Shown piece after piece: positions 1 to 62,051 of a DNA stretch of 64,000 nt. Position numbers and translations under genes: made by a program. Every line of letters begins with the position of its first letter. Position 1 is the stretch's first letter. Source of the stretch: Alphaproteobacteria bacterium (GTDB lineage Bacteria; Pseudomonadota; Alphaproteobacteria; RF32; CAG-239); the NCBI GenBank assembly GCA_017501665.1, contig JAFVWM010000038.1, positions 69,252 through 133,251 of the forward strand, written 5' to 3'. The notes under the pieces are model-generated. The model searched no databases. It saw only the letters and a list, made by a program, of their open reading frames with translations, and was not told the origin of the DNA.

Positions 1-509
1 GTGGTGTTATGACGGCTGCTTTGCGTACTGCATATTTTTATATCACAGGAAAAGAACTTGGTCAGCTTAATTTTGAGGTGATTGAAGGATTGGAAGCGGT
101 TAAAGTTGCCGAAGTAGATATCAATGGTGCCAAAGTAAGAATCGCTGTTGTAAACGGTGTGGGTAATGTTGAGGAAGTTATGGAAAACATTAAAACCGCT
201 CAAGAAGCCGGCGAGGAGCTTCCTTATCATTTTATCGAAGTTATGGCTTGCCCCGGTGGTTGTATCTCAGGTGGCGGTCAGCCAAAAGTGATGATGCAAT
301 GCATGGAAAAACCGTGGGGTATTACCGACGAAATAAGAAAACTTCGTTCAAAAGGTTTGAATGTAGAAGATGAGCAAGCAAAGAATCGCTTATCTCATCA
401 CAACGAATCAATTAAGAAGTTGTATGACGAATTTCTTGGTGAAGCAGGCGGTCACAAGTCGCACGAGTTGTTACATACTAAGTATCGTCAGCGTAACGTT
501 TACAAATAA
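1..509 (+). CDS. hydA: [FeFe]-hydrogenase catalytic subunit, C-terminal part (5' end lies outside the window): the end of the H-cluster domain followed by a C-terminal small-subunit-like domain.
   Basis: The translation contains 'HFIEVMACPGGCISGGGQP', the diagnostic L3/H-cluster cysteine motif of Fe-only hydrogenases. The preceding 'TAALRTAY...VDINGAKVRIAVVNGVGN' matches the CpI-type C-terminus. The tail 'SHHNESIKKLYDEFLGEAGGHKSHELLHTKY' resembles the Fe-hydrogenase small-subunit domain. The reading frame is open from base 3 with no start codon in the window. Confidence 0.85.
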   Translation, partial: GVMTAALRTAYFYITGKELGQLNFEVIEGLEAVKVAEVDINGAKVRIAVVNGVGNVEEVMENIKTAQEAGEELPYHFIEVMACPGGCISGGGQPKVMMQCMEKPWGITDEIRKLRSKGLNVEDEQAKNRLSHHNESIKKLYDEFLGEAGGHKSHELLHTKYRQRNVYK

Positions 510-546
510 AAAACTCGTATAATGGAATACTAATCGCAAAAAGGCG

Positions 547-607
547 AAAGGCTGAAAATTCACGTAGCTATTTGTACGGCTCAAAATTTTCAGCCTTCTT
601 TTTTTGC
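547..607 (+). terminator. Rho-independent terminator downstream of hydA.
   Basis: Inverted repeat 'aaaggctgaaaatt' ... 'aaaattttcagcctt' followed by the run 'cttttttttg'. Confidence 0.6.
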
Positions 608-760
608 TTCTATTATTCTCATTCTCCGAGTTTTTTGTATTGATTCTCGCCTTGAAAATAACTCTATAAATTCTTTTATTCGCCTTTTTTGTACGGCTCA
701 AAATTTTTGTCTCTCCTAGAAATCGCTCTATCTGTACTATTCTCCGAGTTTTTTTGTACA
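575..760. repeat. Direct repeats inside a ~700-bp non-coding region.
   Basis: 'ttgtacggctcaaaatttt' occurs at about 582 and 687, and 'ttctccgagtttttt(t)gta' at about 623 and 741. The small minus-strand ORF 471..791 is judged spurious. Confidence 0.5.
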
Positions 761-774
761 CTTTGCTTACGCTT

Positions 775-1086
775 CGTTTAGGGCATGACAATATTGATTA
801 AAACAAGGAAGATCCCTAGAATTTTTTGTTGCACAAAAAATAGGGATGACGTTTTAAATTTAAAATGTCATCGCCCAGCAAAGTCATTCCTCGCTCGGCG
901 CTTCAGCGTCCGTGCGTCTAGGAATCTCATCTTTGCGTCAGCGCTAATATAATAAAAACAAGGAAGATCCCTTGACCTCACTGCGTTCGGAGGGATGACA
1001 TTTCAGGTTAAAGAAGATCCCTTGACCTCACTGCGTTCGGAGGGATGACGTTATATATTCGTTTAGGGCATGATAATATTGATTTA
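775..1086. repeat. Cluster of GC-rich palindromic elements resembling Rickettsia palindromic elements (RPEs), with flanking direct repeats.
   Basis: Three hairpin units share the stem 'gatccct...agggatgac(g)': 810-850, then a ~51-bp tandem pair at 959-1000 and 1010-1051 ('aagatcccttgacctcactgcgttcggagggatgac'). The palindrome 'gatgacgttttaaatttaaaatgtcatc' lies at about 845-872. The flanking direct repeat 'cgtttagggcatga(c/t)aatattgatt' occurs at 775-800 and 1059-1086. These are GC-rich islands in AT-rich DNA. Confidence 0.6.
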
Positions 1087-1236
1087 TCTCGTTTGTCAGC
1101 TTGTTCAAGTGAAGACGCCAGAGATACAAAAACACCTATAAAATCTATTGCCAAATTTAAAAAAACATCATATAATAAAGTATAATTTGCAAATTTTTAC
1201 GATTTGCGAAACTTTTGTTATTGAGGAATGTGTCAG

Positions 1237-4200
1237 ATGAAGAGAATTATTGCTTTGATTGTACTTATCTGTTGCTGTTGTGTATATTCGGCATATTCTC
1301 TTGTGCAACCTCTTTCTTTGACACGAACCACCGGCTCGTCTTCGACAACTTCGTTGCCAATGTATGCTCCACCGCCTAGTGATACGGAGCAAACGTGTTA
1401 TTGTTCTTCGGATACAACTGATGGAACTAGTGATATTAACGGTGGCTGTTTTTTTTGTTTAAATTATGATGGTTATGAAGCCACTCTATTAACAGATTCG
1501 CATCCACCAGCTTTTACTAATGGTTATTATTGTTGGCAATCCGGAAAAATTAATTCGGAATGTGAAAATAATTATGTAGATGAACCACTTTGTGACCATG
1601 AACATAAGTTTTATGCTGAAATAGCTGGACATTACGGATATAAGACTCTTCAAGATGTAAAAGCAACAAACTTAAAGTGCTGTTATTATATGCATGAGGG
1701 AGATAATAGCTATGGAGATATAAATGCGATAAGCGTTGATGCTAATGGAATTACTATCAACGAAGGTTATTCTCCATGGCTTTATTTTTGTGAGGCTGAT
1801 CCGACACAATGTGAGTGGAAGATAAAGAATCCTAATAATCAATCGTTGCAGCTATATAATGATAACGCTATTAAAAGCTATTTGAATAAGATAAAAGATT
1901 TTGAAGGTGTTTTTCCAACGGAAGGTGAAGATATACTTTGTCGAATATCAGCACTTAATGGAGATGAAGAAACGATTATTGATGATGTTAGAATTTTTTA
2001 TGCTAATTCTAGTCTTCAGAGCTGTGATGATGATTATTCTCCATATGAAACAAGTGAATATAGTAGTCCTTGTAAAATAAGTATAGTTAGTTACAATAAT
2101 GATGAGGCGAGAGGTGAAATAGAGATTACCGAAGAGTATCTTTTAGGTTACCAAAAAGAACCTGAAGAGCCCGCTATTCCTGATTGTTCTGATATTTTTT
2201 CTGATGAGATTATAGATCTTTTGAGATCAGACGGAAAATGTAAACTAGATCATGAGACAAAGTCTTGTGTTCTTAACGGTGTAACCAAATACTACTGTAG
2301 TGCTATTGCAGCTGGAACTTTTTGTAAAGGTGATTTTAGCCTATATTACGACGATACTTACACAGAAACCTGTCCTATAAATAATTCACAAGTCGTAGGA
2401 TATAAAAAACCTGAGGAAGAAGCGGTTCCTTCTGAAGATTGTTCTGATATTTTTTCTGATGATATTATAGATCTTTTGAGATCAGACGGAAAATGTGCTC
2501 AAAATCATGAAACAAAGTCTTGTGTTTATAACAATGAAACCAAATACTACTGTAGTGCTTCTGTAGATGTAGCTAATTGTGCAGGTGATTTTAGCCTATA
2601 TTACTACGATACTTACACAGAAACCTGTTCTATAAATAATTCACAAGTCGTAGGATATAAAAAACCTGAGGTTACCTGTGATGAAGTTTTTGAAGACATA
2701 GATAGTATTATCGGCATATTACCTGAAAAATCAACCATAGAGTGTGGCTCTTACGTGTCAGGATCGTGTACATATGGTAGTAAGGCATACTCTTTCTGCT
2801 ATGGTGATGTCTTAAATGCCTGCCCTGATAACTCAGACGAATACAGTAGGGAATATACCTCATCATACACAGAACCATGTTCTTACACACTAGGCGAACC
2901 GGATGGTCATTATAACGGGATGGACATCAATATTTTAGGGTTTACTCAAAAAGATACAGATAGTTGTGAAAATAAAATACATGACTATTTTGAAAATGAT
3001 AATTGGTTATACGTAAGAGAATCAGATCTTAATGAAGAAGATCGTGAAATTAAAGATAATTTTATTACAGACACATGTATAGATAATGGCACAGAGACAT
3101 ATATATATCGTATATGTACTTTTGAAGAGGTCTGTAACAGGGAAGACGTTAACGGAAGCACCTCTTCCTGTAATTATTACGAAGGTTTACACACTTGCAA
3201 ATGTCCGAATGGTTGGATGACCATCGAAGAATATAGATCCCTTAATGGTTATACGGAGGATACAATAATCACGGGGATAGGTAATGCGTGCAAAGCTGAA
3301 AAAGTTGAAAAATTTAGCGAGTTTGAGGTGGTTTTAGGAACAGATGAGTATCCATCATGTCAAGACATCATAGAACATCAAAATGCCTCAGGTGATCCGA
3401 CTAAACCTAAAGACGGCTATTATGATTATTGCTCAGATGAAATTGATAGAATTGCTTGCCATAATAGTGATACAATGGCTGCTCTTTGCCGTTATTGCGG
3501 AGCAGAGAATAATGTTGAAAACGGATACAATTTTGAAAAATCCTTTAAAATAGACAGTGAAACAGTCCCTTGTCTACAAGGTTGTCATGAGGACTATGCT
3601 TGCAGTTATACGAAGACAGATGGCACCACAATAACCTATTGTTCACAATGTGATTGCAGCGGATATGCCTCCAAGTTGGAACTTTGTTCTGTCGGTTTTG
3701 AGGGAGAAGAAAACAATACCGAGATATTGGCTTCTCCATGTTATACGTCAGGAAAAGTAGATGAAAATGAAAGTTGTAAACTGAGCCCGATTGATAATAC
3801 TTTACCGACTACGTACAAAAAGATATTGTGTCCTGATGATTATGTGACACTGGAAGATTGGCTTGAAACATCTCAGACAATAATTGATGAAAACGAATTT
3901 TTAGGAAACAACTTGAATATTAGCAACGAAAATCAATGGATAAATTATTTTGTACCTCAGACTGATGAAGGATCAGTATGTGATTATGCTGTCGAAGTTG
4001 TTGAATCAGGTTCAAGCGGAACAGATGTAGATTCCGACATTGAAGAGACAAATGATCCCGAAAACCGTTTGTATGAAATAATATCACTTGAAACAAAATA
4101 TAAAGGATTTAACTTAAATTGCCAAGCCTTGGTTGAGACATTACCAAATCTTGAGTTTATCAATCAGGCCTATTTGCACAACTACAATGATTATACAACC

Positions 4201-5214
4201 TGTTGGGATATTGAAGGCAATCAGGAAAAATACCTTGCCACATGTGAGGAGGATTATCTTCTTCCCGAAGAAGGTTATGAAGTGATCGGCAACGAAGATG
4301 TTTGTAAATTTAACGGAAAAGATTATTATAAATATGGCGGATCTTGTCCGGTGATATTCAGCGGTAAAGAAGCTGTTGTTGCTGAGAGCATGAGTGATGA
4401 TGCTATAAGAAATTTGTATGGTAGCGTAAAAATAAGTTATTGCAATGATAAGGGTGTCAAAAAGAAAGTTACTTTATGTGACCCGAATATCTATAACCAA
4501 ATATGCGAATATCCATACACATATGCTGACGGTCTGCCACAAAAAGAATGGTGTTTTAGAAATATTCGAGGAAAAGCCGTTAATCCATACGATACAGCAA
4601 ATAATGTAAAATATTATACAAATACAGGATTGCCCATACAATGTGAGTATGTTCCAGAATCGTGTGATTCTATATTGCAACAAGATAGTAGCGCCAATAA
4701 TGTTTTCATAGAAGACAGCCCTAATGACTGTATAAAAAAATACGGAACGGCAGTCCAAACAAAATTGTGTAGCGGAGATAATAATATTCCGAAATACGCG
4801 TGCTATTATCCGAAAGATACCTATAAATATACTACCCAAAACTGTCCTATCGGAAGAGATTTGTCTCGCCCATACATCTTAATCAACGGTGTAAAACATT
4901 GGGACAGATGTGATTGTCCTCCGGCCTATAAATATCACGTAAATAACTGTCGTGTGTATGATCTTGGCGGTGATACTTGCGAACAACAAATCGACCCGCA
5001 GTTCATTGATGCGGCCAATGATCCGACATTGCCGACATCAGGAAGCATAAAGCTCTATACCAAGTGCAACGATCCTCAGATAAATCAACCGAACGGTTGT
5101 AAAACCCCTTTGGGTACTTGGGCAAAATGCTACTATTGTTGCCCCAAAGGTACCAGAGCTACCGGAAATCTGTCTATTGACAGTTGCGGAGCAAAAATTT
5201 ACGAGTGTAAATAA
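1237..5214 (+). CDS. Very large (~1320 aa) cysteine-rich, acidic, Tyr/Asn/Asp-rich secreted protein with an internal tandem ~82-aa repeat; function unknown.
   Basis: The ORF is long and uninterrupted. 'gagga' sits 8 nt upstream of the ATG at 1237 (an in-frame ATG also exists at 1228). The N-terminus 'MKRIIALIVLICCCCVYSAYS' looks like a signal peptide. Cysteines number in the dozens in patterns such as CxC and CxxC. No recognisable enzymatic motif was found. Confidence 0.7.
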   Translation: MKRIIALIVLICCCCVYSAYSLVQPLSLTRTTGSSSTTSLPMYAPPPSDTEQTCYCSSDTTDGTSDINGGCFFCLNYDGYEATLLTDSHPPAFTNGYYCWQSGKINSECENNYVDEPLCDHEHKFYAEIAGHYGYKTLQDVKATNLKCCYYMHEGDNSYGDINAISVDANGITINEGYSPWLYFCEADPTQCEWKIKNPNNQSLQLYNDNAIKSYLNKIKDFEGVFPTEGEDILCRISALNGDEETIIDDVRIFYANSSLQSCDDDYSPYETSEYSSPCKISIVSYNNDEARGEIEITEEYLLGYQKEPEEPAIPDCSDIFSDEIIDLLRSDGKCKLDHETKSCVLNGVTKYYCSAIAAGTFCKGDFSLYYDDTYTETCPINNSQVVGYKKPEEEAVPSEDCSDIFSDDIIDLLRSDGKCAQNHETKSCVYNNETKYYCSASVDVANCAGDFSLYYYDTYTETCSINNSQVVGYKKPEVTCDEVFEDIDSIIGILPEKSTIECGSYVSGSCTYGSKAYSFCYGDVLNACPDNSDEYSREYTSSYTEPCSYTLGEPDGHYNGMDINILGFTQKDTDSCENKIHDYFENDNWLYVRESDLNEEDREIKDNFITDTCIDNGTETYIYRICTFEEVCNREDVNGSTSSCNYYEGLHTCKCPNGWMTIEEYRSLNGYTEDTIITGIGNACKAEKVEKFSEFEVVLGTDEYPSCQDIIEHQNASGDPTKPKDGYYDYCSDEIDRIACHNSDTMAALCRYCGAENNVENGYNFEKSFKIDSETVPCLQGCHEDYACSYTKTDGTTITYCSQCDCSGYASKLELCSVGFEGEENNTEILASPCYTSGKVDENESCKLSPIDNTLPTTYKKILCPDDYVTLEDWLETSQTIIDENEFLGNNLNISNENQWINYFVPQTDEGSVCDYAVEVVESGSSGTDVDSDIEETNDPENRLYEIISLETKYKGFNLNCQALVETLPNLEFINQAYLHNYNDYTTCWDIEGNQEKYLATCEEDYLLPEEGYEVIGNEDVCKFNGKDYYKYGGSCPVIFSGKEAVVAESMSDDAIRNLYGSVKISYCNDKGVKKKVTLCDPNIYNQICEYPYTYADGLPQKEWCFRNIRGKAVNPYDTANNVKYYTNTGLPIQCEYVPESCDSILQQDSSANNVFIEDSPNDCIKKYGTAVQTKLCSGDNNIPKYACYYPKDTYKYTTQNCPIGRDLSRPYILINGVKHWDRCDCPPAYKYHVNNCRVYDLGGDTCEQQIDPQFIDAANDPTLPTSGSIKLYTKCNDPQINQPNGCKTPLGTWAKCYYCCPKGTRATGNLSIDSCGAKIYECK
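2175..2670 (+). repeat. Two tandem ~246-nt direct repeats inside the Cys-rich gene, encoding duplicated ~82-aa Cys-containing modules.
   Basis: 'tgattgttctgatattttttctgatga(g/t)attatagatcttttgagatcagacggaaaatgt...' recurs at about 2175 and 2424. The protein segments 'PDCSDIFSDEIIDLLRSDGKC...TETCPINNSQVVGYKKPE' and 'EDCSDIFSDDIIDLLRSDGKC...TETCSINNSQVVGYKKPE' are about 85% identical. Confidence 0.85.
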
Positions 5215-5295
5215 TTTTATATTCTTCTTAATTAAATATTATCCTTTGGCAGATAAAATGACAAAAATAAAAAAATCTGCTAAAGGAGCTTTATT

Positions 5296-6564
5296 TTGAA
5301 GAACTTAAAAAAATGGCTAAAATCCATGAAAATTTATGCCGACAAACGTATGCTCGTTATGTTGTTGTTGGGGTTTGTGTCCGGATTGCCTTTTTTGCTT
5401 GTTTCATCAACATTGTCTCTTTGGCTTAAAGATGTCGGCGTTTCATTAACCGCAATCGGTTTGTTTTCACTTGTAAAAGCTCCTTACAGTTTTAAATGGC
5501 TGATTTCGCCGATTATTGACCAATATTCTTTGCCGTTTTTTTCAAAATTGGGACGTCGCAGAAGTTGGGCGGTTTTTTTACAGATATTGTTGATCATATC
5601 TCTGATATATACTGCCTTTACCAATCCGACTTTATCACCGGTGATGTTTGTTGTTTTTGTTTTTATGGTCGCGCTGTTTTCATCTGCCCAAGACATTGTT
5701 CTTGATGCTTATCGTATCGAAAACTTCAATTCTAAAGAACAAGGCGCCGGTGTTGCCGTATTTGTCTTGGGTTACCGCATAGGTCTGTTGTTTTCCGGAG
5801 CAGGAGCTTTGTTTTTGGCCTCGATAATGTCGTGGTCTTATGTATATTTGATTATGGCCGGCGGTGTTTTAATCGGTCTTGTTACTATATTGCTGTCCAA
5901 AGAGCCTAAAAACAACCGCGCTTCAAAACCATATACTCTTCGCGCTACTATTGTTAATGCCGTAATAAAGCCTTTTTCAAATTTTATGAAACGTGATAAA
6001 TGGCTTCTTATTTTGCTGTTTATATTTTTCTATCGCATGAGCGATGCTTATGTCGCGCCAATGGCTTATCCGTTTTTTGATGACATTGGTTTTACCAAAG
6101 TTCAAATTGCCTCAATTATTAAAATATATGGTGTAATTGCTACCATTTTTGGCACTCTTGTCGGCGGTGTCGTGGTTAATCGTATAGGATTGGCTAAAGC
6201 ATTGTTTGTTTGCGGAATATTGCAAGGACTATCCAACCTTGTTTATGTCGGACAAGTTTATGCCGGTAATAACGCTCAAATATTAATGATAAATATTTTT
6301 ATCGAAAATGTTTCGGGCGGAATGGGTACAGCTGCTTTTGTGGCATATTTATCTGCACTTTGTAACAAAAAATATACCGCAACCCAATATGCTTTGTTAT
6401 CTTCATTTATGGGGGCGGCTCGCGACTTGTTTTCTGCGTCGTCCGGTTTTGTGGCGCATATATTATCGTGGCAAAATTTCTTTATTGCCACAACTTTAAT
6501 GTCACTCCCCGGAATGATAATTTTATATTATTTGATAAAAGTAAAAGCTATTCGTAATCGCTAA
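5296..6564 (+). CDS. ampG: AmpG-family muropeptide / MFS permease.
   Basis: TTG start at 5296 lies 7 nt after 'aaggag'. The 422-aa protein is polytopic. The N-terminus 'MLVMLLLGFVSGLPFLLVSSTLSLWLKDVGVSLTAIG' is typical of AmpG. Confidence 0.75.
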   Translation: MKNLKKWLKSMKIYADKRMLVMLLLGFVSGLPFLLVSSTLSLWLKDVGVSLTAIGLFSLVKAPYSFKWLISPIIDQYSLPFFSKLGRRRSWAVFLQILLIISLIYTAFTNPTLSPVMFVVFVFMVALFSSAQDIVLDAYRIENFNSKEQGAGVAVFVLGYRIGLLFSGAGALFLASIMSWSYVYLIMAGGVLIGLVTILLSKEPKNNRASKPYTLRATIVNAVIKPFSNFMKRDKWLLILLFIFFYRMSDAYVAPMAYPFFDDIGFTKVQIASIIKIYGVIATIFGTLVGGVVVNRIGLAKALFVCGILQGLSNLVYVGQVYAGNNAQILMINIFIENVSGGMGTAAFVAYLSALCNKKYTATQYALLSSFMGAARDLFSASSGFVAHILSWQNFFIATTLMSLPGMIILYYLIKVKAIRNR

Positions 6565-48049: not shown

Positions 48050-48136
48050 GCGCTTGTGGCGGAACAGGTAGACGCTGCAGACTTAAAATCTGTTGGCCGC
48101 AAGGCCGTGCCGGTTCGATTCCGGCCTAGCGCACCA
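48050..48136 (+). tRNA. tRNA-Leu (anticodon UAA), class II with long variable arm and encoded CCA.
   Basis: D-arm 'ggcggaacaggtagacgc', anticodon loop 'cuUAAaa', long variable arm 'gttggccgcaaggccgtgcc', T-arm 'ccggttcgattccgg', 3' 'gcacca'. There is one mismatch in the acceptor stem. Confidence 0.85.
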
Positions 48137-48283
48137 TTTAAAAAAGTCCTCTTTATGAGGGCTTTTTTAATTGGTATGATATATCAGAGTATCGAAGCGG
48201 CACGGTGCCGGTTTGAACCGCAGTTCGCAGGCGAACGGAGTGCGCCGGTCAAATTTTTGAGCGAACAAGGTCGGCGAAGCCAT

Positions 48284-48338
48284 TCCGGCCTAGCGCACCA
48301 ATTTGGAGAGGGTTGGCAAAATTTTTTGCTAACCCTTG
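48284..48338 (+). repeat. Direct repeat of the last 18 nt of tRNA-Leu, fused to att-like repeat A; the left boundary of the island stack.
   Basis: 'ttccggcctagcgcacca' is identical to tRNA positions 48119-48136. It is followed by 'atttggagagggttggcaaaattttttgctaaccct', an imperfect hairpin. Confidence 0.8.
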
Positions 48339-49857: not shown

Positions 49858-51153
49858 ATGACAAAAATAAAAAAAGAAATTACTGAAGATAATGAAAAAA
49901 TAAAGAAGGCAAGAGTGGCTGTCCAAAAAAAGGGTCTTAAACTTTCCAATGGGGAAATTATTGAAGAAAAAATATCATCACAGACATGGAAAGAAAAAGA
50001 ATTTAAATATCCTACTAAAACAATTCGAATTGGAACATGTTTTAGTGGTATTGGTGCAATTGAACACGCTTTTCAACGATTGAGATTAAACCATAAAATA
50101 ATATTTGCTGGTGACATTGATGAAAACTGCCGCAAAAGTTACTTAGCAAATTATAAGATATCTGAAGATGATTGGTTTTCTGATATCAGAGATTTCGATG
50201 CAAAAAGATATAAAAATAAAATAGATTTTTTAATAGGAGGAGCTCCATGCCAAGCATTTTCAATGGTCGGTAAAAGATTGGGGTTTGAAGATGCAAGGGG
50301 AACTTTATTTTATGAATTTGCAAGAATCATAAAAGAGACTCAACCAAAAGTTTTTCTGTTTGAAAATGTTAAAGGAATGCTAAATCATGATAACGGGAGA
50401 ACATGGAAAATAATTCACAGTATTTTTGAAGAGCTCGGATATGACATACATTTTCGTGTCTTAAATAGTAAAGATTATGGAATTCCTCAGCACAGAGAAC
50501 GTTTGTATTGTTTGGGGTTTAAGAAAAAAAGAAAATTTTTATTTCCAGCCCCTATAAAACTAGAATATACAATGTTTGATTTTTTAGAAGATTATGCAGA
50601 TTCAAAATATTTTCTAAAAGAGAAAGGCATAAAATTTGTAACTAGTCATAAAAATAAAACAAAATGCTACACTCAAATAAATGGAGACATAGCACTTTGT
50701 CAAAAAAGAAATCAAGAATTTAATTGGCACGGAGATTTTATCTTTCACCCTATTGATGAAAGTATTGATAATGAACAATATGATGAGTTTGTTTTTAACG
50801 TAAAAGATGTTGAAGAAAAATATTATCTATCTGAAAAAGTTGCAAAATATGTTTTAGCAGGAGGAACAAAAAACTTCAAGACATCTACTAAAACTGATTT
50901 AGAAATAGCTCGCCCATTATTACAAACAATGCATAAAATGCATAGGGCAGGTGTTGATAATTATGTAACTCATAACAAAGGAAGAATTAGAAAGTTAACA
51001 CCAAGAGAATGTCTAAGGTTAATGGGATTTAAAGATAGTTTTAATATTGTAGTTTCAGATACTGCGACATATCAACAAGCTGGAAATAGTATAGTTGTTG
51101 ATGTTCTTATAGCTTTGTTAAGACAGTTAGATATAACGGAATATGGTGTGTAA
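49858..51153 (+). CDS. DNA (cytosine-5)-methyltransferase.
   Basis: Motif I 'FSGIGA', motif IV 'GGAPCQAFS', motif VI 'ENVKGM', motif X 'QAGNSI'. Confidence 0.9.
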   Translation: MTKIKKEITEDNEKIKKARVAVQKKGLKLSNGEIIEEKISSQTWKEKEFKYPTKTIRIGTCFSGIGAIEHAFQRLRLNHKIIFAGDIDENCRKSYLANYKISEDDWFSDIRDFDAKRYKNKIDFLIGGAPCQAFSMVGKRLGFEDARGTLFYEFARIIKETQPKVFLFENVKGMLNHDNGRTWKIIHSIFEELGYDIHFRVLNSKDYGIPQHRERLYCLGFKKKRKFLFPAPIKLEYTMFDFLEDYADSKYFLKEKGIKFVTSHKNKTKCYTQINGDIALCQKRNQEFNWHGDFIFHPIDESIDNEQYDEFVFNVKDVEEKYYLSEKVAKYVLAGGTKNFKTSTKTDLEIARPLLQTMHKMHRAGVDNYVTHNKGRIRKLTPRECLRLMGFKDSFNIVVSDTATYQQAGNSIVVDVLIALLRQLDITEYGV

Positions 51154-52174
51154 TATGATTATAAATGATACTAAATTCAAGATAGTAGATACATTTGATA
51201 ATTTTATGACTGTTCCTGATTGTTTTGTAAAAAATCCAAACAAAATAGGAAGTGGTAATGGAGAAGCAAAATTTTACATTTCAAATAAAGATGAAATGAG
51301 AAGATTTTATGGAGGGGAAGGCTTTACAAAAAAATGTTTTTTATTAAAACAGGATTTAATAAACTATATGATAGCCGTAAAAAATGAGTATATTACACCG
51401 TCCCAAGATTATAGAAACAAAGAAGAATTTCCTACTTTATGGGATAAACGGATGTCTTTAATCAATTCCCAACCTGATGTTATAATGTTTGATATTATTG
51501 ACCAAACTCAGATTGAAGGACCTAGAGGATACGTTAACTCTAGGGATTTTGGATATGAACTCATACGAACAATAGCACTTCCTTTAATCTCATATTTGTC
51601 TGCAATGGAACTAAAGGATAAGAAAGGGGCAACATTGTATTATTGGAAATTATTTGCTGATTTTGAAGCTATTGCACAAAAAAAATGTGAACCTCTTGTT
51701 TTTAGTTACGGTAAGAAGAAAAGAGAAAACGATGAAGAAGACAAAGATAGTGAAATAATTTTACCACTAGAAACCCCGCAACAAAAAGAGATAAGATATG
51801 CAAGAAATGGACAAGGCAAATATAGGGAAACACTATTAGAAGAATGTCCCTTTTGCCCTATTACAATGATAAATGATGAACGTATACTAATTGCTAGCCA
51901 CATAAAACCATGGGCTGCGTCAAATGATAAAGAAAAAATTGACCCTCAAAATGGCTTCATGCTTTCACCATTATATGACAAACTATTTGATAGAGGTTTT
52001 ATAACATTTACAAACGATAGAATCTTACATATTTCAAAATGGATATCACCTAAGAATATTCAGCGAATGGGACTAAAAGATAAGATGTTTATACAGCAGC
52101 TGCCTTTAACTAAAGAACGTTGTTGTTACTTAGATTTTCATATATCATCGGTCTTTCATGGAATAATTGAATAA
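51143..52174 (+). CDS. HNH-family endonuclease, the candidate type II restriction enzyme partner of the MTase.
   Basis: 'CPFCPI...HIKPWAASNDKEKIDPQNGFMLSPLYDKLFDRGFITF' is an HNH-type motif. The gene overlaps the MTase by 11 nt. Confidence 0.65.
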   Translation: MVCNMIINDTKFKIVDTFDNFMTVPDCFVKNPNKIGSGNGEAKFYISNKDEMRRFYGGEGFTKKCFLLKQDLINYMIAVKNEYITPSQDYRNKEEFPTLWDKRMSLINSQPDVIMFDIIDQTQIEGPRGYVNSRDFGYELIRTIALPLISYLSAMELKDKKGATLYYWKLFADFEAIAQKKCEPLVFSYGKKKRENDEEDKDSEIILPLETPQQKEIRYARNGQGKYRETLLEECPFCPITMINDERILIASHIKPWAASNDKEKIDPQNGFMLSPLYDKLFDRGFITFTNDRILHISKWISPKNIQRMGLKDKMFIQQLPLTKERCCYLDFHISSVFHGIIE

Positions 52175-52564
52175 CAAACAAATACAACAGATAAAAGAGC
52201 GGCATTTTATGATGTCGCTCTTTCTAGTTATGTATATGCATAACTTCACCCTTTCAAGCAATCTTTACCTTAAATAGTATTGATTACGAATGTTTTGTTT
52301 TGCTTGATATATCAAGCATTCTGTTAAAAAGCAATTTGCTGCAATATAGCATACATCTGCAGGTGTCCTAGCTTGAGTAAAATCATAGCACGTTTTTGCT
52401 CTTGACACCCAAGATAGTACAGTTAACAATTCTAACACATTTCTCAACCTCCAATCAGAACCCTAGACTTGATATAACACAACAACATATTGTGTTTTAT
52501 CGGATTCGTAATACATTATATTGAAATAAATTTAGATTGTCAAATTAGCGAAGTCTAATATTTC

Positions 52565-53095
52565 TTAGGCATTGGTCACATCTCCCATCATCCTCTCCAC
52601 ATCCTCCAAATCAATACCTTTTGATGATAAAACAGACATCAAGGTTTCTAGTGCGTTTTTGTAGCTATCTCGCTCATTTTCTAATGATTTGATACGGATT
52701 TGAGCCTCGTTTAGCTCATTTTTATAGTAGTTTGCCCATTGCTCTTGGTCTTGGGCATCGTGTTTTAGCATATTCTTTTCAATGTTGCCCATATTAACAC
52801 CGTCTAGAGGCATAAATTCGCGTCCGGAGAGCGATAATTGTCTTCTGCCCTTATCATCACAGTTTTTTATCAAATAACCCTCTCTGACGAGTTTATTAAC
52901 CATAACTTTGGTTGATGAAGTTTTACAACAAATCGCCTTTGCCAATGTCTCGTTATTCATGAAAAATTTGAAGTTGCGATTGGTTTTATAACCGATATAT
53001 GTTAAAATTAAACGCTCTGTAATAGTGAGCTTTCTTTGTCTTTCACTCATTTTAATTCCTTTAATATGTATTTTAACATGAGTATTTATCGGCAA
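52565..53095 (-). CDS. Winged-helix DNA-binding protein, a putative iteron-binding autoregulator or replication-initiator-like protein.
   Basis: 'LTITERLILTYIGYKTNRNFKFFMNNETLAKAICCKTSSTKVMVNKLVREGYL' looks wHTH-like. A C-terminal coiled coil is present. The iteron array lies immediately upstream. The start may be at 53050 (MSERQRK). Confidence 0.5.
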   Translation of the reverse strand: MPINTHVKIHIKGIKMSERQRKLTITERLILTYIGYKTNRNFKFFMNNETLAKAICCKTSSTKVMVNKLVREGYLIKNCDDKGRRQLSLSGREFMPLDGVNMGNIEKNMLKHDAQDQEQWANYYKNELNEAQIRIKSLENERDSYKNALETLMSVLSSKGIDLEDVERMMGDVTNA

Positions 53096-53130
53096 ATTTT
53101 ACGCTTTGTAATTTTAACAAAAAATGCTGC

Positions 53131-53274
53131 GGAAATGAATATTTCCACCTAAAATCGCAGCGGAAATGGATATTTCCACTAAAACGCCAAATGGAAATGA
53201 ATATTTCCGCTATCGGAAACGGTTATTTCCGTAGGTGGAAATGGATATTTCCGTAAGCGGAAACAGATATTTCC
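53131..53274. promoter_or_regulatory. Array of six 16-bp imperfect palindromes 'GGAAA(T/C)NNNTATTTCC' (iterons or operators).
   Basis: Units start at 53131, 53162, 53193, 53215, 53237 and 53259 (see finding at 52565-53290 for spacing and sequences). Confidence 0.75.
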
Positions 53275-53632
53275 GCCGCACTTTGCTGAAACTGTTGATA
53301 CACAAGGAATTGAGAGCTGTTTTTTGCTCCTATAATATAATTATAATAGAAATAAAATAGCTATTATAATAGCAAAATTTGTTTTGATTAAAATACAAAA
53401 CCAAAGGAAATCAAAGGGATTTAACTCACTTAAAATAAAAAAAGTGCAATAGGAATACCCATCGCACTTATTTGTTAAAAAACATATTAATGAAGTAAAA
53501 GGCAATATTTAACTTCACATGTATTTATCGGTTAATTAAGCGAATTTGTTAAAATAAAAAATTACAAGTTGTAATGATAAATACATTTGTAATGAAGAAA
53601 AAGGAGCAAATATATTCGGCTACAATGCGATA

Positions 53633-53827
53633 ATGTCAGTGATTTTGAACGAAAATATGACTGATGAGCAAAAACTGGATGTGATTCAAATGTTGATTGA
53701 TAAGGGATGTGATGTAAATTGGCTCAATTACCAACGCGAAACAGCACTTCTTATCGCTTTGGAACGAATAGAAATAGATATTGCTAATTTGCTTTTAGAC
53801 AATGGTGCAGTGATTTATAAGGAATAA
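53633..53827 (+). pseudogene. Short ankyrin-repeat-like ORF, likely a gene remnant.
   Basis: 'ETALLIALERIEIDIANLLLDNGAVIYKE' resembles an ankyrin repeat consensus; only 64 aa. Confidence 0.35.
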
Positions 53828-54449: not shown

Positions 54450-54482
54450 ATCATAATCCTTTCTTTAATCACATCTTGTGAT

Positions 54483-54575
54483 ACCTAGTGAATTTGTTCG
54501 GCATTTGGTTTTCTTGCCGTTTTGGTCGGTGTAGGTTGTAACGCCTAATGAATTTGTGCGAGCTTTTATAGTGTT
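54483..54575. repeat. ~93-nt exact duplicate of the 3' end of the repeat-protein gene (55383-55475), displaced into an intergenic position.
   Basis: 'acctagtgaatttgttcggcatttggttttcttgccgttttggtcggtgtaggttgtaacgcctaatgaatttgtgcgagcttttatagtgtt' is present at both sites. Confidence 0.85.
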
Positions 54576-55278: not shown

Positions 55279-55367
55279 ATTCTAGTCCTTTTAGCTATAT
55301 AACTCATGTGACTAGTCTAAACATAAGAAACAAAAAGATTCAACAATTTTATTGTATTAGTAGCGAT

Positions 55368-55769
55368 TTAATCGCACCTCGTAACACCTAGTGAATTTGT
55401 TCGGCATTTGGTTTTCTTGCCGTTTTGGTCGGTGTAGGTTGTAACGCCTAATGAATTTGTGCGAGCTTTTATAGTGTTGCCTTTATTATCTTTATAAGTG
55501 GTCGTCCCAAGCGAATTTGTTTTTGCTGTGCCTCTTGTGCCATCGCTACCGGTATAGGTTGTTGTACCCAAAGAGTTGGTTCTTGCTTTTACTTTATTTC
55601 CTTTGTTATCGGTATAAGTCGTTACACCGAGTGAATTTGTGCGAGATTTGATAATCCGACCGTCATTATCCTTACAAGTTGTAACCCCCAAAGAATTGGT
55701 AGAGCAACGCATATCAGCCCAAGCCGAGCCGACACAAAACATACAAATCAAAGCAATTACATACCGCAT
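55368..55769 (-). CDS. Small secreted protein made of six 21-aa tandem repeats.
   Basis: Signal peptide 'MRYVIALICMFCVGSAWA'. Repeats are of the form 'RTNSLGVTTYTDNKGNKVKA' (63-nt DNA repeats). Confidence 0.6.
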   Translation of the reverse strand: MRYVIALICMFCVGSAWADMRCSTNSLGVTTCKDNDGRIIKSRTNSLGVTTYTDNKGNKVKARTNSLGTTTYTGSDGTRGTAKTNSLGTTTYKDNKGNTIKARTNSLGVTTYTDQNGKKTKCRTNSLGVTRCD

Positions 55770-55773
55770 CCAA

Positions 55774-56505
55774 TCATTCCTTTTTTCCAAAAATATAACA
55801 AATAGGATTTGCCATACCGTATTTCTTAAATGAATTATGCTTGTTTACATATTGTGGGTATTGAGACGAGACATCAACACCTTCAAATAACCAACGTTTT
55901 CTTCCTCTTTCATCAGTCTCATTACTCCACTGAAGCGGTTTATATACAGCTCTAAATATTCCATGGTATTCACTAATTACTAATTCAATATCTTTTATCT
56001 TATTAGAATTTAACAACCAGCTTTTTCGTGTCGCCTCATAAACATCTTTGGCTGTTTCATAAGTTTTGTTTATATTAACAATCAAACAATTATGAAAAAT
56101 ATCTTCTTTTGCTATGTCATCAACACAATAAAAGGCTTCAATTTCAGATATTGATTTCATACCGTTATCAAGAGAATGATATCCACCCATAATATTTAAT
56201 AAATTTCTATCATTCCAAGATTTTGAAGAGAAAATATCAATCAATGCGGCTTCTAAATGAAATGCTTCAATTTCTGTTAGACCATGTCTAATGATAAATT
56301 TTTGAACATTTGCTCCCGATGATTTTATGTCCGCAATTCGTTTGTTTTTCTCTTTTTCCGCAACTTCTTGTTCGTGAGCAAATACTCTATTACCACAACC
56401 TTTGCCAATATAGAATATTTGTTTATTGCGAGAATCAATTAAACAGTATACATAATAACCAATACTTTCTATTGTAGCTTTAGAAAATTCAATAACATCA
56501 GACAT
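55774..56505 (-). CDS. GIY-YIG nuclease-domain protein with a C-terminal domain of unknown function.
   Basis: 'YYVYCLIDSRNKQIFYIGKGCGNRVFAH' is the GIY-YIG motif. The start is taken at 'MSDVIEF', which is preceded by 'aggag'; the ORF track begins earlier, at 56556. Confidence 0.65.
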   Translation of the reverse strand: MSDVIEFSKATIESIGYYVYCLIDSRNKQIFYIGKGCGNRVFAHEQEVAEKEKNKRIADIKSSGANVQKFIIRHGLTEIEAFHLEAALIDIFSSKSWNDRNLLNIMGGYHSLDNGMKSISEIEAFYCVDDIAKEDIFHNCLIVNINKTYETAKDVYEATRKSWLLNSNKIKDIELVISEYHGIFRAVYKPLQWSNETDERGRKRWLFEGVDVSSQYPQYVNKHNSFKKYGMANPICYIFGKKE

Positions 56506-56638
56506 CAAAACATCTCCTAACATCATTATCTTACAAGCTATATAACGAAAAAACAAAGAAAAAAGTTCAGTTTATGCTATAATTTATAGCTTTTTTAACA
56601 AACTGTGCTTTATCATTTTTATAAAGAGTGAGGTTTAG

Positions 56639-57199
56639 ATGAACTACAAATTTGGTGTTTATGGCGATAGTATTGCATTTGGTTATGGCAACAATAACCA
56701 AAGTTGGTTTGATGAGCTTTATTTAGGAAATGAAGCTTTGAAACTCGCGCAAAACGGTGAGAAGATTGAAGATGTTTTACGCAAAATCAAACAAGACGAC
56801 AATCATTATGACACTTTGTTTTTAGCAGTAGGCATTAACAATTTGCTGTCCGGAGCTCCTAAACCCAACCGAATAGACATTTCCAGTCTTATCAATCAGT
56901 ATGAAGAAGTCTTAAAAGTAGCCAAAACAAAGGCTTCTAACATTATTGTTCAGTCAGTTTTACCTGTCAGGGAAGAGCTTTTTCCAAATCAAGCTTGGCT
57001 TGATGAGGATAAATGGGGTTTTAATGCAGATGTTGAAACATTTAATCAAAAACTGGCAAAACTGTGTGAAACGCATCAAATCAAGTATTTAGATGCTTAT
57101 ATGAGCTTTTGCTCACTGGATTTATCAAAGATTTATATGGATGCTGTCCACTTAAATAAAGAAGGACAACAAGAACTTGCGATGGTTTATAAGAAATAA
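56639..57199 (+). CDS. SGNH/GDSL hydrolase.
   Basis: 'FGVYGDSIAFGYG' is the GDS(L) block I; C-terminal 'DAVHLNKEG' is the DxxH block V. Confidence 0.7.
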   Translation: MNYKFGVYGDSIAFGYGNNNQSWFDELYLGNEALKLAQNGEKIEDVLRKIKQDDNHYDTLFLAVGINNLLSGAPKPNRIDISSLINQYEEVLKVAKTKASNIIVQSVLPVREELFPNQAWLDEDKWGFNADVETFNQKLAKLCETHQIKYLDAYMSFCSLDLSKIYMDAVHLNKEGQQELAMVYKK

Positions 57200-57368
57200 G
57201 AATTTTGTCATTTTATAAAAGATATAACCAAACCTTGGATTTCTTTCGAAAAGACCCATTGCTCGAAGCAATTTGTTGTATTTGTCGCTTTTATCGGTCA
57301 TTTCAAAAAATGCGTACAAATAGACTTCTTTAAAAGGTGTTATTCTTCTATAAATTGATTATATAAAA

Positions 57369-58069: not shown

Positions 58070-58312
58070 CTATTTCAAATATCCTCTAACCAAACCTTGG
58101 ATTTTGCTTGTATATCTGGAAGCTTTGAGAAGGTTTTTATATCTATCTCTTTGGTCTGTCATTCCAAAGAAAGCACAAAGCAACATTTGTCCTAAATCAT
58201 CAGCTCGTTTCATAACATCTTGAAGCAATTCTTCAAAAGTACCGTTATAGGCTTCTTTTAAGATTTTGTAGCTTTTAATCTTCTTACGATTTTCGTTCAA
58301 AAACTTGCCCAA
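58070..58312 (-). CDS. Small hypothetical protein.
   Basis: 80-aa ORF; no motif. Confidence 0.3.
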   Translation of the reverse strand: MGKFLNENRKKIKSYKILKEAYNGTFEELLQDVMKRADDLGQMLLCAFFGMTDQRDRYKNLLKASRYTSKIQGLVRGYLK

Positions 58313-58552: not shown

Positions 58553-58870
58553 TTGATTAAGGATAATATAATGTCTTTTATACTAAAGTCCCCATTAGAA
58601 GTTATGCAAGATATTGCTTATAAAGCGAAATCCAAACGTTTAGAGCAGAATTTAACACAACAAGGGTTGTCTGTTCGTTCAGGTGTGAGTTTGGGTACAA
58701 TTAAGCGTTTTGAGCGTTTTGGCGAAATATCTCTTAAATCTTTAATTGATATTGCTTTAACTTTAGGCTGTATGAATGATTTTGAAGAACTTTTTAAGGA
58801 TAATCAAAAACCACAAAGCCTTTTTGAAAAAAAATCTGACCAAACACGCAAAAGAGGAACAATAAAATGA
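58553..58870 (+). CDS. hipB: HipB-like XRE-family HTH antitoxin.
   Basis: 'LTQQGLSVRSGVSLGTIKRFERF' is an HTH; 4-nt overlap with hipA. Confidence 0.75.
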   Translation: MIKDNIMSFILKSPLEVMQDIAYKAKSKRLEQNLTQQGLSVRSGVSLGTIKRFERFGEISLKSLIDIALTLGCMNDFEELFKDNQKPQSLFEKKSDQTRKRGTIK

Positions 58871-60039
58871 GGTTAAATGTATTTTTGAATACTTATGGAA
58901 ACCGTCTTTTTGTAGGTGTTTTGGAAGAACAGAAGCAACGTATATTTTTTGAATATGCGCCGGAGTTTATTCAATCAAACATTCCTTTATCACCTTTTAT
59001 GCTTCCTTTAAAACAACAAGTTTATGAAGATGAAAAATACACTTTTGATGGTTTATTCGGTGTATTTAATGATAGTTTACCGGATGGTTGGGGGTGCTTA
59101 TTATTAGATAGAAAACTACAAAAAAAAGGTTTGAGTTATAATTCAATCACTCCTTTGCAACGATTATCTCTTATCGGCTTAAATGCTATGGGTGCTTTAG
59201 AATATGAACCCATAACCGAAATTGATAAAGAATTTGTCGGAGATATAGTGTTGGATGCTTTATCAATGGAAGCCGGCAAAATTTTACAAGGCAACAGTTC
59301 AGATGTTTTAGATGAACTTTTAAGCCTTAATGGGTCTTCAGGGGGAGCAAGACCCAAAATCGTAGCACTTGTTTCAAAAGATAAACAAACATTGATTCAC
59401 GGAAACCTTACACAAGAAAATTATGAGCCTTGGTTAATAAAATTTAACTCATCTCTTGATGACAAAGATATCGGAGCAAAAGAATACATTTATTCATTGA
59501 TGGCTAAGGATGCAGGAATTGAAATGCCTGATACCTTTTTGTTCCCTTCAAAAGATAGTAGTGGACATTTTGGTGTAAAACGCTTTGATAGAACAACAGA
59601 AAGTAAAATTCATGTTCATACAGCATGTGGATTGTTGCATGCAAGCCACCGTTTTGCTTCTTTAGACTATACATCTCTCTTAAAATTAACAGCAATTTTA
59701 ACCAAAGATGTCCGTGAAGTTGAAAAAATGGTCAGATTAATGATATTCAACATCAAATCCAATAATAAAGATGACCACAGCAAAAACTTTTCATTTATGC
59801 TAACAAAAGATAATGTCTGGAAAATGACACCGGCATACGATTTAACTCCATCTCAAGGTTTAAATGGTGAACAAACAGCAATGGTAAATGGTAAAGGAAA
59901 AAATATCACAAAAGAAGACTTTATAAAAGTTGCAGAACCTTTTGGTTTTGATGCTAAAAAAGTAGAAGAAATTGTAGAACAAGTTGATGATGCTTTATTC
60001 TGTTACAAAAAATATGCAAGCAATGTTGGGATTAAGTAA
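58867..60039 (+). CDS. hipA: HipA-family Ser/Thr kinase toxin.
   Basis: HipA N-terminal region 'LSPFMLPL', 'FGVFNDSLPDGWGCLLL'. Catalytic 'NNKDDHSKNFSF' matches the D-x-H-x-KN-S motif. Confidence 0.85.
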   Translation: MRLNVFLNTYGNRLFVGVLEEQKQRIFFEYAPEFIQSNIPLSPFMLPLKQQVYEDEKYTFDGLFGVFNDSLPDGWGCLLLDRKLQKKGLSYNSITPLQRLSLIGLNAMGALEYEPITEIDKEFVGDIVLDALSMEAGKILQGNSSDVLDELLSLNGSSGGARPKIVALVSKDKQTLIHGNLTQENYEPWLIKFNSSLDDKDIGAKEYIYSLMAKDAGIEMPDTFLFPSKDSSGHFGVKRFDRTTESKIHVHTACGLLHASHRFASLDYTSLLKLTAILTKDVREVEKMVRLMIFNIKSNNKDDHSKNFSFMLTKDNVWKMTPAYDLTPSQGLNGEQTAMVNGKGKNITKEDFIKVAEPFGFDAKKVEEIVEQVDDALFCYKKYASNVGIK

Positions 60040-60165
60040 TTAGTTATAAATGTTAAACAATATGCACAAACTAATCTGTTCTTTCATTTCTAAAATTTCC
60101 TCTCTGTGCTCTATAAAAAAGTTGATATTAATACTCAATTTTATAGTATTTTCACTATAACGTGG

Positions 60166-60251
60166 CGCACCAATTTGGAGAGGGTTATCAAAGAATTTTG
60201 CTAACCCTGTACAGTCTGGCTGGAGACGACTTGCAATCTGCGAGTAAATTG
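60166..60251 (+). repeat. att-like composite repeat: repeat A (a copy of 48294-48338) immediately followed by repeat B (a copy recurs at 62016-62051).
   Basis: 'gcgcaccaatttggagagggttatcaaagaattttgctaaccct' + 'gtacagtctggctggagacgacttgcaatctgcgagtaaattg'. Confidence 0.8.
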
Positions 60252-61947: not shown

Positions 61948-62015
61948 ATGTTTTATACAAGTAAAACTTATGTTAATTTTAGCAGAAAATACTTTTTAAA
62001 TATGGCTTTTTAACT

Positions 62016-62051
62016 CTGACTGAAGACGACTTGCAATCTGCGAGTAAATTG
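62016..62051 (+). repeat. Repeat B copy, the right boundary of the second small island unit.
   Basis: 'ctgactgaagacgacttgcaatctgcgagtaaattg' matches 60216-60251 at 33 of 36 positions. Confidence 0.8.

Follow-up and report, generated by a model that had tools for sequence, protein, structure and literature searches.

What is the role of a row of regularly spaced palindromic sites that lies between a gene for a small winged-helix protein and an AT-rich tract in an uncultured alphaproteobacterium? The question is raised by contig JAFVWM010000038.1 of assembly GCA_017501665.1 (RF32; CAG-239), from which we analyzed a stretch of 64,000 nucleotides (nt), positions 69,252 to 133,251 of the forward strand. 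This whole stretch is referred to as the window, and coordinates are counted from its first letter. A preliminary description of the window had proposed that the sites are the iterons of a possible fossil replication origin, or else an autoregulated operator. We found that the sites belong to a four-part module which consists of the gene for the winged-helix protein, here called W, the iteron array, a pair of AT-rich palindromes, and a predicted small RNA (sRNA) complementary to the W leader. The module is conserved in mobile, tRNA-linked islands that carry anti-phage defence genes, and most likely it serves as their own replication origin. We tentatively interpret it as a lambda O-like initiator with an iteron origin under antisense-RNA control, part of an integrative defence island. 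An origin is favoured because the features of the module parallel those of lambdoid origins and of the rep-oriV of SGI1.

The array consists of six 16-bp units on the minus strand, which we numbered from the side of the AT-rich tract: iteron 1 at 53259-53274, iteron 2 at 53237-53252, iteron 3 at 53215-53230, iteron 4 at 53193-53208, iteron 5 at 53162-53177 and the promoter-proximal iteron 6 at 53131-53146. Read in order of increasing coordinates, the units are spaced by 31, 31, 22, 22 and 22 bp, exactly as the preliminary description had it, and the six iterons are phased onto one helical face. Four sites spaced by 22 bp stand beside the AT-rich element and two sites spaced by 31 bp stand beside the W promoter, a 4+2 arrangement. 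All six fit GGAAAY-N4-RTTTCC, and in the orientation of the gene their consensus is GGAAATA-W-N-C-R-TTTCC. They had been described as palindromic, which needs the qualification that the palindromes are imperfect and are all oriented alike. The pattern GGAAAYNNNTATTTCC gave six exact plus-strand matches in the window, every one of them within the array. When one mismatch was allowed on both strands there were 12 matches where 0.44 were expected, and none of 100 shuffles reached as high a count. Across 503 kb of related loci and the window the site was found in these arrays only.

W is encoded on the minus strand by an open reading frame (ORF) at 52565-53050. The start codon ATG 53050 (MSERQ...) is common to all homologues and is preceded by an AAGGA ribosome-binding site, and a start at TTG 53095 was discarded. 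Since translation starts at ATG 53050, W has 161 amino acids and not 176 as first read, and the distance of the sites upstream of the start codon becomes 81-224 bp instead of the 35-180 bp reported before. The W promoter and 5' untranslated region (UTR) occupy 53051-53124 on the minus strand, where AAGGA is the Shine-Dalgarno sequence. A block TTTTTGTTAAAAT (53112-53124) comes after the last iteron and is followed by a -10-like GATAAATA (53090 to 53083), an order that is kept across loci, and the columns of the promoter and UTR are conserved in a 19-locus alignment. The combination of GATAAATA and ribosome-binding site also precedes other genes of the island. Counted from the putative transcription start of W, iteron 6 is centred at about -62 and the array spans about -55 to -198, so that the core promoter is uncovered. 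This position makes a simple multi-operator repressor, the other possibility that had been offered, somewhat less probable.

On its far side the array is joined to the AT-rich element (53330-53372) by a linker of 55 bp (53275-53329). The element contains a 20-bp palindrome-like sequence CTATAATATAATTATAATAG at 53330-53349, whose form in the family is CTATTATAAT-N3-ATTATAG, and a perfect 12-bp palindrome CTATTATAATAG at 53361-53372. An AT-rich tract had been noted after the array, and we confirmed that the GC content falls to 14-18% at 53325-53400, the local minimum. Majority-base conservation was 0.94 for the palindrome at 53330-53349 and 0.99 for CTATTATAATAG, values above that of the iteron half-sites, and like the iterons these palindromes were confined to the module in the 503 kb of related loci and the window. 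The length of the linker is fixed, with zero indels in any aligned locus. It holds the -35 (TTGAGA, 53310-53315, plus strand) of a candidate divergent promoter, which a promoter scan placed at 53310-53338 with a spacer of 15-17 nt and TATAAT. It also holds an inverted repeat that is decayed in the window; in other lineages this repeat reads AAYCCTT-N7-AAGGRTT, and compensatory changes were found in three of the related loci, L005, L017 and L022.

Beyond the AT-rich element we found a predicted sRNA of about 82 nt, transcribed on the minus strand from 53516 to 53435. In it a 5' hairpin is followed by a single-stranded linker and by a strong intrinsic terminator (stem 53442-53469 and a T run), and its predicted fold has an energy of -22 kcal/mol with z = -4.8. 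The sRNA promoter at 53522-53552 on the same strand (TTAACA, a 17-nt spacer and the -10-like GATAAATA) is kept in related loci. The sRNA gene lies between the AT-rich element and a divergent ankyrin gene, about 400 bp upstream of W. It is encoded on the same strand as W, not opposite the W leader, and therefore is not a cis-antisense RNA. Its linker (53473-53500) is complementary to 53051-53078, that is to the W 5' UTR including the Shine-Dalgarno sequence, and the two form the inverted repeat I2. In the window the two are complementary only in part, at about 82% over 28 nt, and the predicted duplex has an energy of -26.8 kcal/mol. The long inverted repeat was also considered as the border of an invertible segment; this was rejected, as the array keeps a constant orientation relative to W wherever the two are neighbours and the distal arm is served by a promoter and a terminator of its own.

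An sRNA was predicted in 10 of 10 representative loci, which come from distinct lineages. The sRNA sequences, the UTRs and the lineage-specific terminator stems are almost wholly different between lineages. No Rfam family matched the sRNA, and an alignment with MAFFT and RNAalifold gave no consensus structure since the lineages are too divergent. Co-variation was judged by folding each lineage separately and by a cross-matrix of cognate and non-cognate duplexes. Predicted cognate duplexes ranged from -21 to -29 kcal/mol and covered the Shine-Dalgarno sequence. In the group of the window copy (WIN-type) and in L003, L005, L017, L027 and L029 the best predicted target of the sRNA was its own W 5' UTR. 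The result was marginal for L024, and in L030 the sRNA did not pair best with its own W 5' UTR. As examples of cognate pairing, CTCCTTCAG faces CTGAAGGAG in L005, and ATCCTTTAT faces ATAAAGGAT in L017. Thus the sRNA is complementary to the W 5' UTR, and the two co-vary across lineages. This suggests that the sRNA represses translation of W.

Family-wide counts were made over the 42 loci with enough upstream sequence. W, the array, the AT-rich palindromes and the sRNA occur together in 39 of the 42, down to a protein identity of about 40% to the window copy. Between three and seven sites stand at conserved positions in 39/42 loci (six sites in 22 loci and seven in four). The measured spacings between adjacent recognised sites were all 20-22 or 29-32 bp, or two or three helical turns, and the wider gaps are sums of these lengths in which a degenerate site was skipped. 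Similarly, array indels between lineages amount to whole helical turns (31 to 20/21) or to whole 22-bp units. Majority-base conservation was 0.93 in the half-sites, 0.72 in the site centres and 0.60 in the spacers. These patterns indicate that at the level of the family both the sites and their phasing are under purifying selection. The homologues of W come solely from gut or rumen metagenomes and metagenome-assembled genomes (MAGs), nearly all of them labelled Alphaproteobacteria and a few bins labelled otherwise. The word fossil in the preliminary description is hard to maintain, given that protein, half-sites, phasing, palindromes and cognate sRNA are kept over about 40 loci and that the copy in the window is intact.

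Two departures from the common layout were noted, and L027, in which the second occurs, is the most informative of the relatives. In the group formed by L005, L019 and L038-41 a seventh, flipped site covers the -35 region of the W promoter. In L027 the order is tRNA-Val, integrase, an HTH_17 xis-like gene, two ORFs, the W-like gene and, on the opposite strand, an ankyrin-like gene; beyond the latter come array, linker, palindromes and sRNA, and then a giant restriction-modification-like gene. The L027 sites are GGAAATGAMTATTGCC, and their layout (31, 31, 22, 22, 22), the linker and the palindromes are as in the window. The W-like gene here is away from the array, and the array-proximal promoter drives the ankyrin-like gene and not W. 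Array and palindromes have nonetheless been kept as one unit, and the pairing of the sRNA with the Shine-Dalgarno sequence of the W-like gene has also been kept.

To what class of protein does W belong? In the AlphaFold model (pLDDT 77) about residues 10-75 form a winged helix-turn-helix (wHTH; helices 11-23, 34-41 and 45-57, wing 61-75), and the C-terminal part is a 54-residue helix (91-144) followed by a short terminal helix. HTH_36 is the top Pfam match, with 24.2 bits where the cut-off is 25; certain relatives score above the cut-off. By HHpred the N-terminal domain of lambda O has been assigned to HTH_36 (PMC5509034), and the Rep proteins of iteron-bearing plasmids from the alphaproteobacterium Paracoccus are marked by this domain too (PMC3832669). 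When W family proteins were compared with PHROGs, 13 of 16 members matched phrog_270 'replication initiation protein' (best E 7.9e-7) and 13 of 16 matched phrog_345 'replication initiation O-like'. Further matches were to phrog_428, phrog_391 and a DnaD-like loader family. The E-values, from 1e-3 to 8e-7, are consistent but weak; no repressor or terminase family of PHROGs was matched by any of the 16. The preliminary description had looked to Rep_3, RepA_N, RepL or phage repressors for the identity of W. None of the three Rep families was among the hidden Markov model (HMM) matches at E <= 1, no phage-repressor HMM matched, and the domain looks instead to be of the HTH_36 or lambda O-like class.

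An exhaustive HMMER scan of 1.84 billion representatives showed that the W family is small, with 92 clusters. In clusters that have the full-length domain the wHTH is nearly always N-terminal and the length of the tail varies, and many other matches are fragmentary. The closest outgroup proteins combine HTH_36 with DnaD_N, and for the distant outgroup proteins no names are on record. A Foldseek search of a viral library found that W resembles proteins of 240-360 amino acids annotated as 'HTH domain' or 'replisome organizer'. A profile search against PDB sequences returned marginal MarR matches and coiled-coil noise, nothing more, and fold searches with the predicted model are not decisive. PADLOC gave no match for W, unlike its neighbours (MTase_II, HNH REase and PD-T4-3). 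The W family is unnamed: neither a Pfam family above threshold nor a PADLOC entry exists for it, and it was not met with in targeted searches of the literature. Several loci seemed to have 'paralogues' of W, but these proved to be small serine recombinases, whose only tie to W is a fusion ORF of W and recombinase in L016.

The genomic setting is that of an integrative element, as had been proposed. The 3' end of tRNA-Leu(UAA) (48050-48136, plus strand) faces the island, and past this gene the GC content changes from about 37% to about 30%. The last 19 nt of the tRNA gene (48118-48136) are copied at 48282-48300. An att-like direct repeat of 44 nt at 48293-48336 (plus strand) starts with the last 8 nt of tRNA-Leu, and a second copy at 60165-60208 (plus strand) is 89% identical to it. 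The repeats enclose 11.9 kb that include W, the array and the defence genes. A further att-like pair lies at 60215-60251 and 62015-62051; such nesting suggests that several islands were accreted in tandem at tRNA-Leu. In other genomes related modules stand at the 3' ends of tRNA-Met, tRNA-His and tRNA-Trp genes, and other loci have tRNA-Arg or tRNA-Val genes a few kb off, with their 3' ends pointing away from W. A reading of the module as a chromosomal terminus of the RTP-like kind was dropped because it sits at different tRNA loci in different genomes and because the GC skew of the window has no terminus signal. No integrase was found within 48.1-64 kb of the window; int and xis stand near the module in L027 and L048 and are absent from the segment bounded by the direct repeats in the window. 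The cargo of the 11.9-kb segment, besides W and its array, is a type II restriction-modification pair (C5 methylase and HNH_2 endonuclease, 49858-52174), a truncated ankyrin gene, acetyltransferases, a PD-T4-3-type GIY-YIG protein (55774-56556) and a HipB/HipA toxin-antitoxin pair (58553-60039). The ankyrin-repeat remnant (64 amino acids, 53633-53827, plus strand) corresponds to a gene that is divergent from W in most loci. The conserved backbone near W consists of genes for two ankyrin proteins, DUF3768, DUF6626 and a small tyrosine recombinase.

How might such a module work? Of the functions proposed earlier, an initiator with iterons and an AT-rich region is the best supported, by the conservation of the module and by the O-like homology. 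W would be a miniature origin-binding protein of the lambda O type, in which the HTH_36 winged helix contacts DNA and the long coiled coil gives a dimer. Dimers of W would fill the six imperfect palindromes, and the phased complex would bend or wrap the DNA in the style of an O-some. The complex would then destabilise the AT-rich palindromes, 55 bp off, or mark them as the place where replication proteins of the host or of a helper enter. The sRNA encoded about 400 bp upstream would throttle the synthesis of W, akin to antisense control of copy number. The island would be stabilised or amplified by replication, which could take place in situ or once it has been excised. A more specialised version seems improbable to us: a domesticated, loader-less origin of the lambda O type, retained in the defence islands of an entire clade of gut Alphaproteobacteria, at which phage infection, release from the sRNA brake or a similar trigger would cause local over-replication in situ or after excision and so raise the dosage of the adjacent defence cassettes or export them. 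Escape replication of prophages and the run-off replication origin of Bartonella are loosely comparable.

Several observations weigh against a replication origin. The homology of W to replication initiators is weak, and its best PDB folds by Foldseek are MarR regulators at a TM-score of about 0.37, which are generic wHTH folds. W does not have the C-terminal loader-binding domain of O, since in the AlphaFold model its C-terminus is only a coiled coil, and helicase, loader, primase and P-like genes are not among its conserved neighbours. In 12 loci there was no conserved DnaA box (TTATCCACA, one mismatch allowed) and no conserved IHF site (WATCAANNNNTTR). tblastn of W found no match in 72,556 PLSDB plasmids or in 50,697 INPHARED phages, no homologue was present in 2.9 M IMG/VR viral contigs, and blastn of 52400-53600 gave no match in the plasmid and phage collections. 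No circular contig was found, and the short contigs had no terminal overlaps. The genes downstream of W are mostly oriented towards the array, and the direct-repeat-bounded segment of the window has no integrase. Finally, L016 and L020 share a deletion of array and palindromes in which the W promoter is retained, and decayed copies with W disrupted are present in L006, L013 and L016.

Some of these observations would be accounted for by the main rival, a purely transcriptional switch, to which we assign a real but smaller chance. A MarR-like W would cooperatively coat roughly 195 bp between its own promoter and the divergent one, which reads towards the sRNA and the ankyrin gene, and W, the sRNA and the two promoters would together make up a bistable circuit by which the state of the island is set, with no replication involved. 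The array is indeed placed exactly in the interval between the inferred W promoter and the candidate promoter at 53310-53338, its proximal site centred at about -62 from the W start and its distal site at about -77 from the divergent start, and the flipped seventh site of the L005 group sits over the -35 region of W as an operator for autorepression would. That L027 has another gene under the array-proximal promoter, and that replication partner genes are missing from the conserved neighbourhood, also fits a switch. In most lineages, the window included, the core promoter as placed from the inferred start is nevertheless free of sites, and six phased sites, an invariant pair of palindromes and an antisense RNA exceed what ordinary autoregulation needs. 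MarR-family repressors are the top PDB folds of the protein and the MarR and SarA models match it weakly, below threshold (Pfam MarR 16.5 bits against a gathering threshold of 24.6), but its sequence homology points to the DNA-binding domains of initiators and not to repressor families.

The combination of a winged helix with a long coiled coil in the AlphaFold model would also suit a KfrA-, TubR- or ParR-like adaptor that forms a filament on a centromere-like array and partitions or tethers the excised island. In parC/ParR and tubC/TubR a phased repeat array lies upstream of the adaptor's own gene, as it does here. We regard a segregation or DNA-organising site as quite unlikely, since no ParA, ParM or TubZ-type NTPase is conserved beside W (the sole Hsp70/ParM-like gene, in L003, is variable cargo), no homology to partition adaptors was detected and the AT-rich palindromes would be left without a role. 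Still less credit goes to a relic that has no present function in this genome. A segment without integrase, a truncated ankyrin gene next door and the disrupted W of L006, L013 and L016 would be expected of a relic, but the window W is intact and 92-97% identical to its closest relatives, its six sites and palindromes are intact, its sRNA is intact and has strong predicted cognate pairing, and purifying selection acts on sites and phasing across the family. Lowest of all we rank a phage-satellite packaging module, in which W would act like a small terminase subunit that binds cosB- or pac-like repeats beside an AT-rich nicking site and so hijacks a helper phage. In the arrangement of its domains W resembles the small subunits of terminases, among them lambda Nu1, a protein that binds repeated R elements, and in L005 genes for lambda-type terminase, gpW, portal and protease are located 5-10 kb away from W. 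These head genes are, however, found in one lineage only and are not adjacent to W; small-subunit terminase families in Pfam and PHROGs were not matched, and the 2.9 M viral contigs hold no relative.

A number of further features were recorded around the module. The L005 head genes (positions 1-5300: GpA terminase, gpW, portal and S49 protease) end abruptly, without a capsid gene, and may be what is left of a prophage or belong to a satellite-like element. L013 and L016 are from one MAG. In L016 (10004-10438) the N-terminus of W is in frame with the C-terminus of a small serine recombinase and the array is lost, and L013 (9810-15560) contains a W pseudogene, that recombinase and a second, inverted array with palindromes but no W. 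This looks like a recombinase-mediated rearrangement. Just past the W stop codon a perfect sigma-70-type promoter (52515-52543, minus strand; TTGACA, 17 nt, TATAAT) reads into a 390-bp gap (52175-52564) that has no convincing ORF, and an sRNA or the transcript of a type I toxin may be expressed from it.

Recurrent families were also seen among the neighbouring genes. A tyrosine recombinase of 194-209 amino acids that consists of the catalytic domain alone (cluster C7) is present in L008, L015, L017/18, L022, L024, L028 and L030, paired with DUF6626 and DUF3768 genes in a recurring block beside W. A family of small ORFs of about 100 amino acids with no Pfam family (cluster C2) occurs at 58070-58312 and 57152-57319 (minus strand) and in 11 related loci. 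One or two of these ORFs are found per island, apparently at cassette borders, and short repeats at 57210 and 58072 lie alongside. A 112-nt repeat is present at 54464-54575, 55367-55478 and 55547-55658, the first two copies being 96% identical. It derives from the 3' part of a repetitive 'TNSLGVTTY' lipoprotein gene (55368-55790) and is duplicated beside a gene for a 228-amino-acid lipoprotein.

If the module is a working replicon, W would represent a new minimal type of initiator, a single O-like winged helix with a coiled coil and no loader partner, coupled to a trans-encoded antisense RNA. The defence islands of this uncultured gut lineage would then be replicating mobile elements and not passive hotspots. 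The signature of the module (W, phased GGAAAT-N4-ATTTCC sites and CTATTATAATAG palindromes) can be used to find such islands and their variable defence cargo in metagenomes, and the module is a candidate for use as a replicon, or as a component of vectors, in a clade for which genetic tools are lacking. Should the module be a transcriptional switch alone, it would still be an unusually elaborate circuit of protein and sRNA whose cis-elements are conserved over deep divergence.

One of the closest parallels is with lambdoid origins, where dimers of O bind 19-bp iterons that are imperfect inverted repeats beside an AT-rich tract (PMC7466680). In Shiga toxin (Stx) phages there are six iterons, of which the four near the AT-rich tract are strongly bound and the other two are still required (PMC7466680). 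W likewise has an N-terminal winged helix, which by weak matches is of the HTH_36 or O-like class, its iterons are imperfect inverted repeats suited to dimers, four to six copies in one orientation beside an AT-rich tract, and the 4+2 arrangement resembles that of the Stx phages. In contrast, the lambdoid origin lies inside the initiator gene, whereas the W array is outside the gene, 81-224 bp upstream of the start codon. W, half as large as O, has no P-binding C-terminal domain, and no P, DnaC or DnaB partner gene accompanies it. An sRNA aimed at the Shine-Dalgarno sequence of the initiator is a further difference, as is the host element, a tRNA-linked island and not a phage.

The island SGI1 is integrated, has the order int-xis-rep-oriV, and replicates after excision by means of rep-oriV (PMC7433901). 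With SGI1, and with the pri-rep-ori of PICI/SaPI elements, the W islands would have in common a gene for an initiator, an origin made of iterons and an AT-rich region, and in such an element replication would be expected once it is excised. In L027 these parts stand near int-xis, in the order int, xis-like gene, W-like gene and array, and integration at the 3' end of a conserved gene with flanking direct repeats is seen here as tRNA-Leu and the 44-nt repeats. The Rep of SGI1 is of the RepA_C type and its origin has 17-bp GC-rich direct repeats and a DnaA box, whereas W is a single wHTH with a coiled coil that has palindromic sites and no DnaA box. The cargo also differs, antibiotic resistance in SGI1 and anti-phage defence in the W islands.

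Other well-studied systems share single features with the module. Iteron plasmids of the Rep_3 class (pSC101, pPS10, R6K, F) have a phasing of about 22 bp, an AT-rich region and an inverted-repeat operator at the initiator promoter. The phasing and the neighbouring AT-rich region recur here, and a flipped promoter site is found in the L005 group only. W does not match the Rep_3 model, however; it has one winged-helix domain and not two, its sites are palindromes and not direct repeats that bind monomers, and DnaA and IHF boxes are missing. With the antisense RNAs that control copy number (CopA of R1 acting on repA, RNAIII of pIP501, RNAI of ColE2) the sRNA has in common that it is short, folded and terminated and pairs with the translation-initiation region of the initiator. 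These RNAs are cis-antisense with perfect complementarity, whereas the sRNA described here is encoded on the same strand about 400 bp away, is partially complementary to its target and co-evolves with it. MarR regulators are the best structural match for the winged helix and flanking helices of W and bind palindromic 16-bp sites. W scores below the Pfam thresholds for them, has a 54-residue coiled coil in place of the MarR N-terminal dimerisation helix, and has six phased sites outside the core promoter. Integrated islands with iteron replicons, O-type origins and antisense control of initiators are thus each already known. What is new is their combination: a half-size, loader-less O-like protein, an array outside the gene as its origin, a trans-encoded antisense RNA that co-evolves with its target, and an invariant pair of AT-rich palindromes, all lodged in the defence-cargo islands of an uncultured gut clade.

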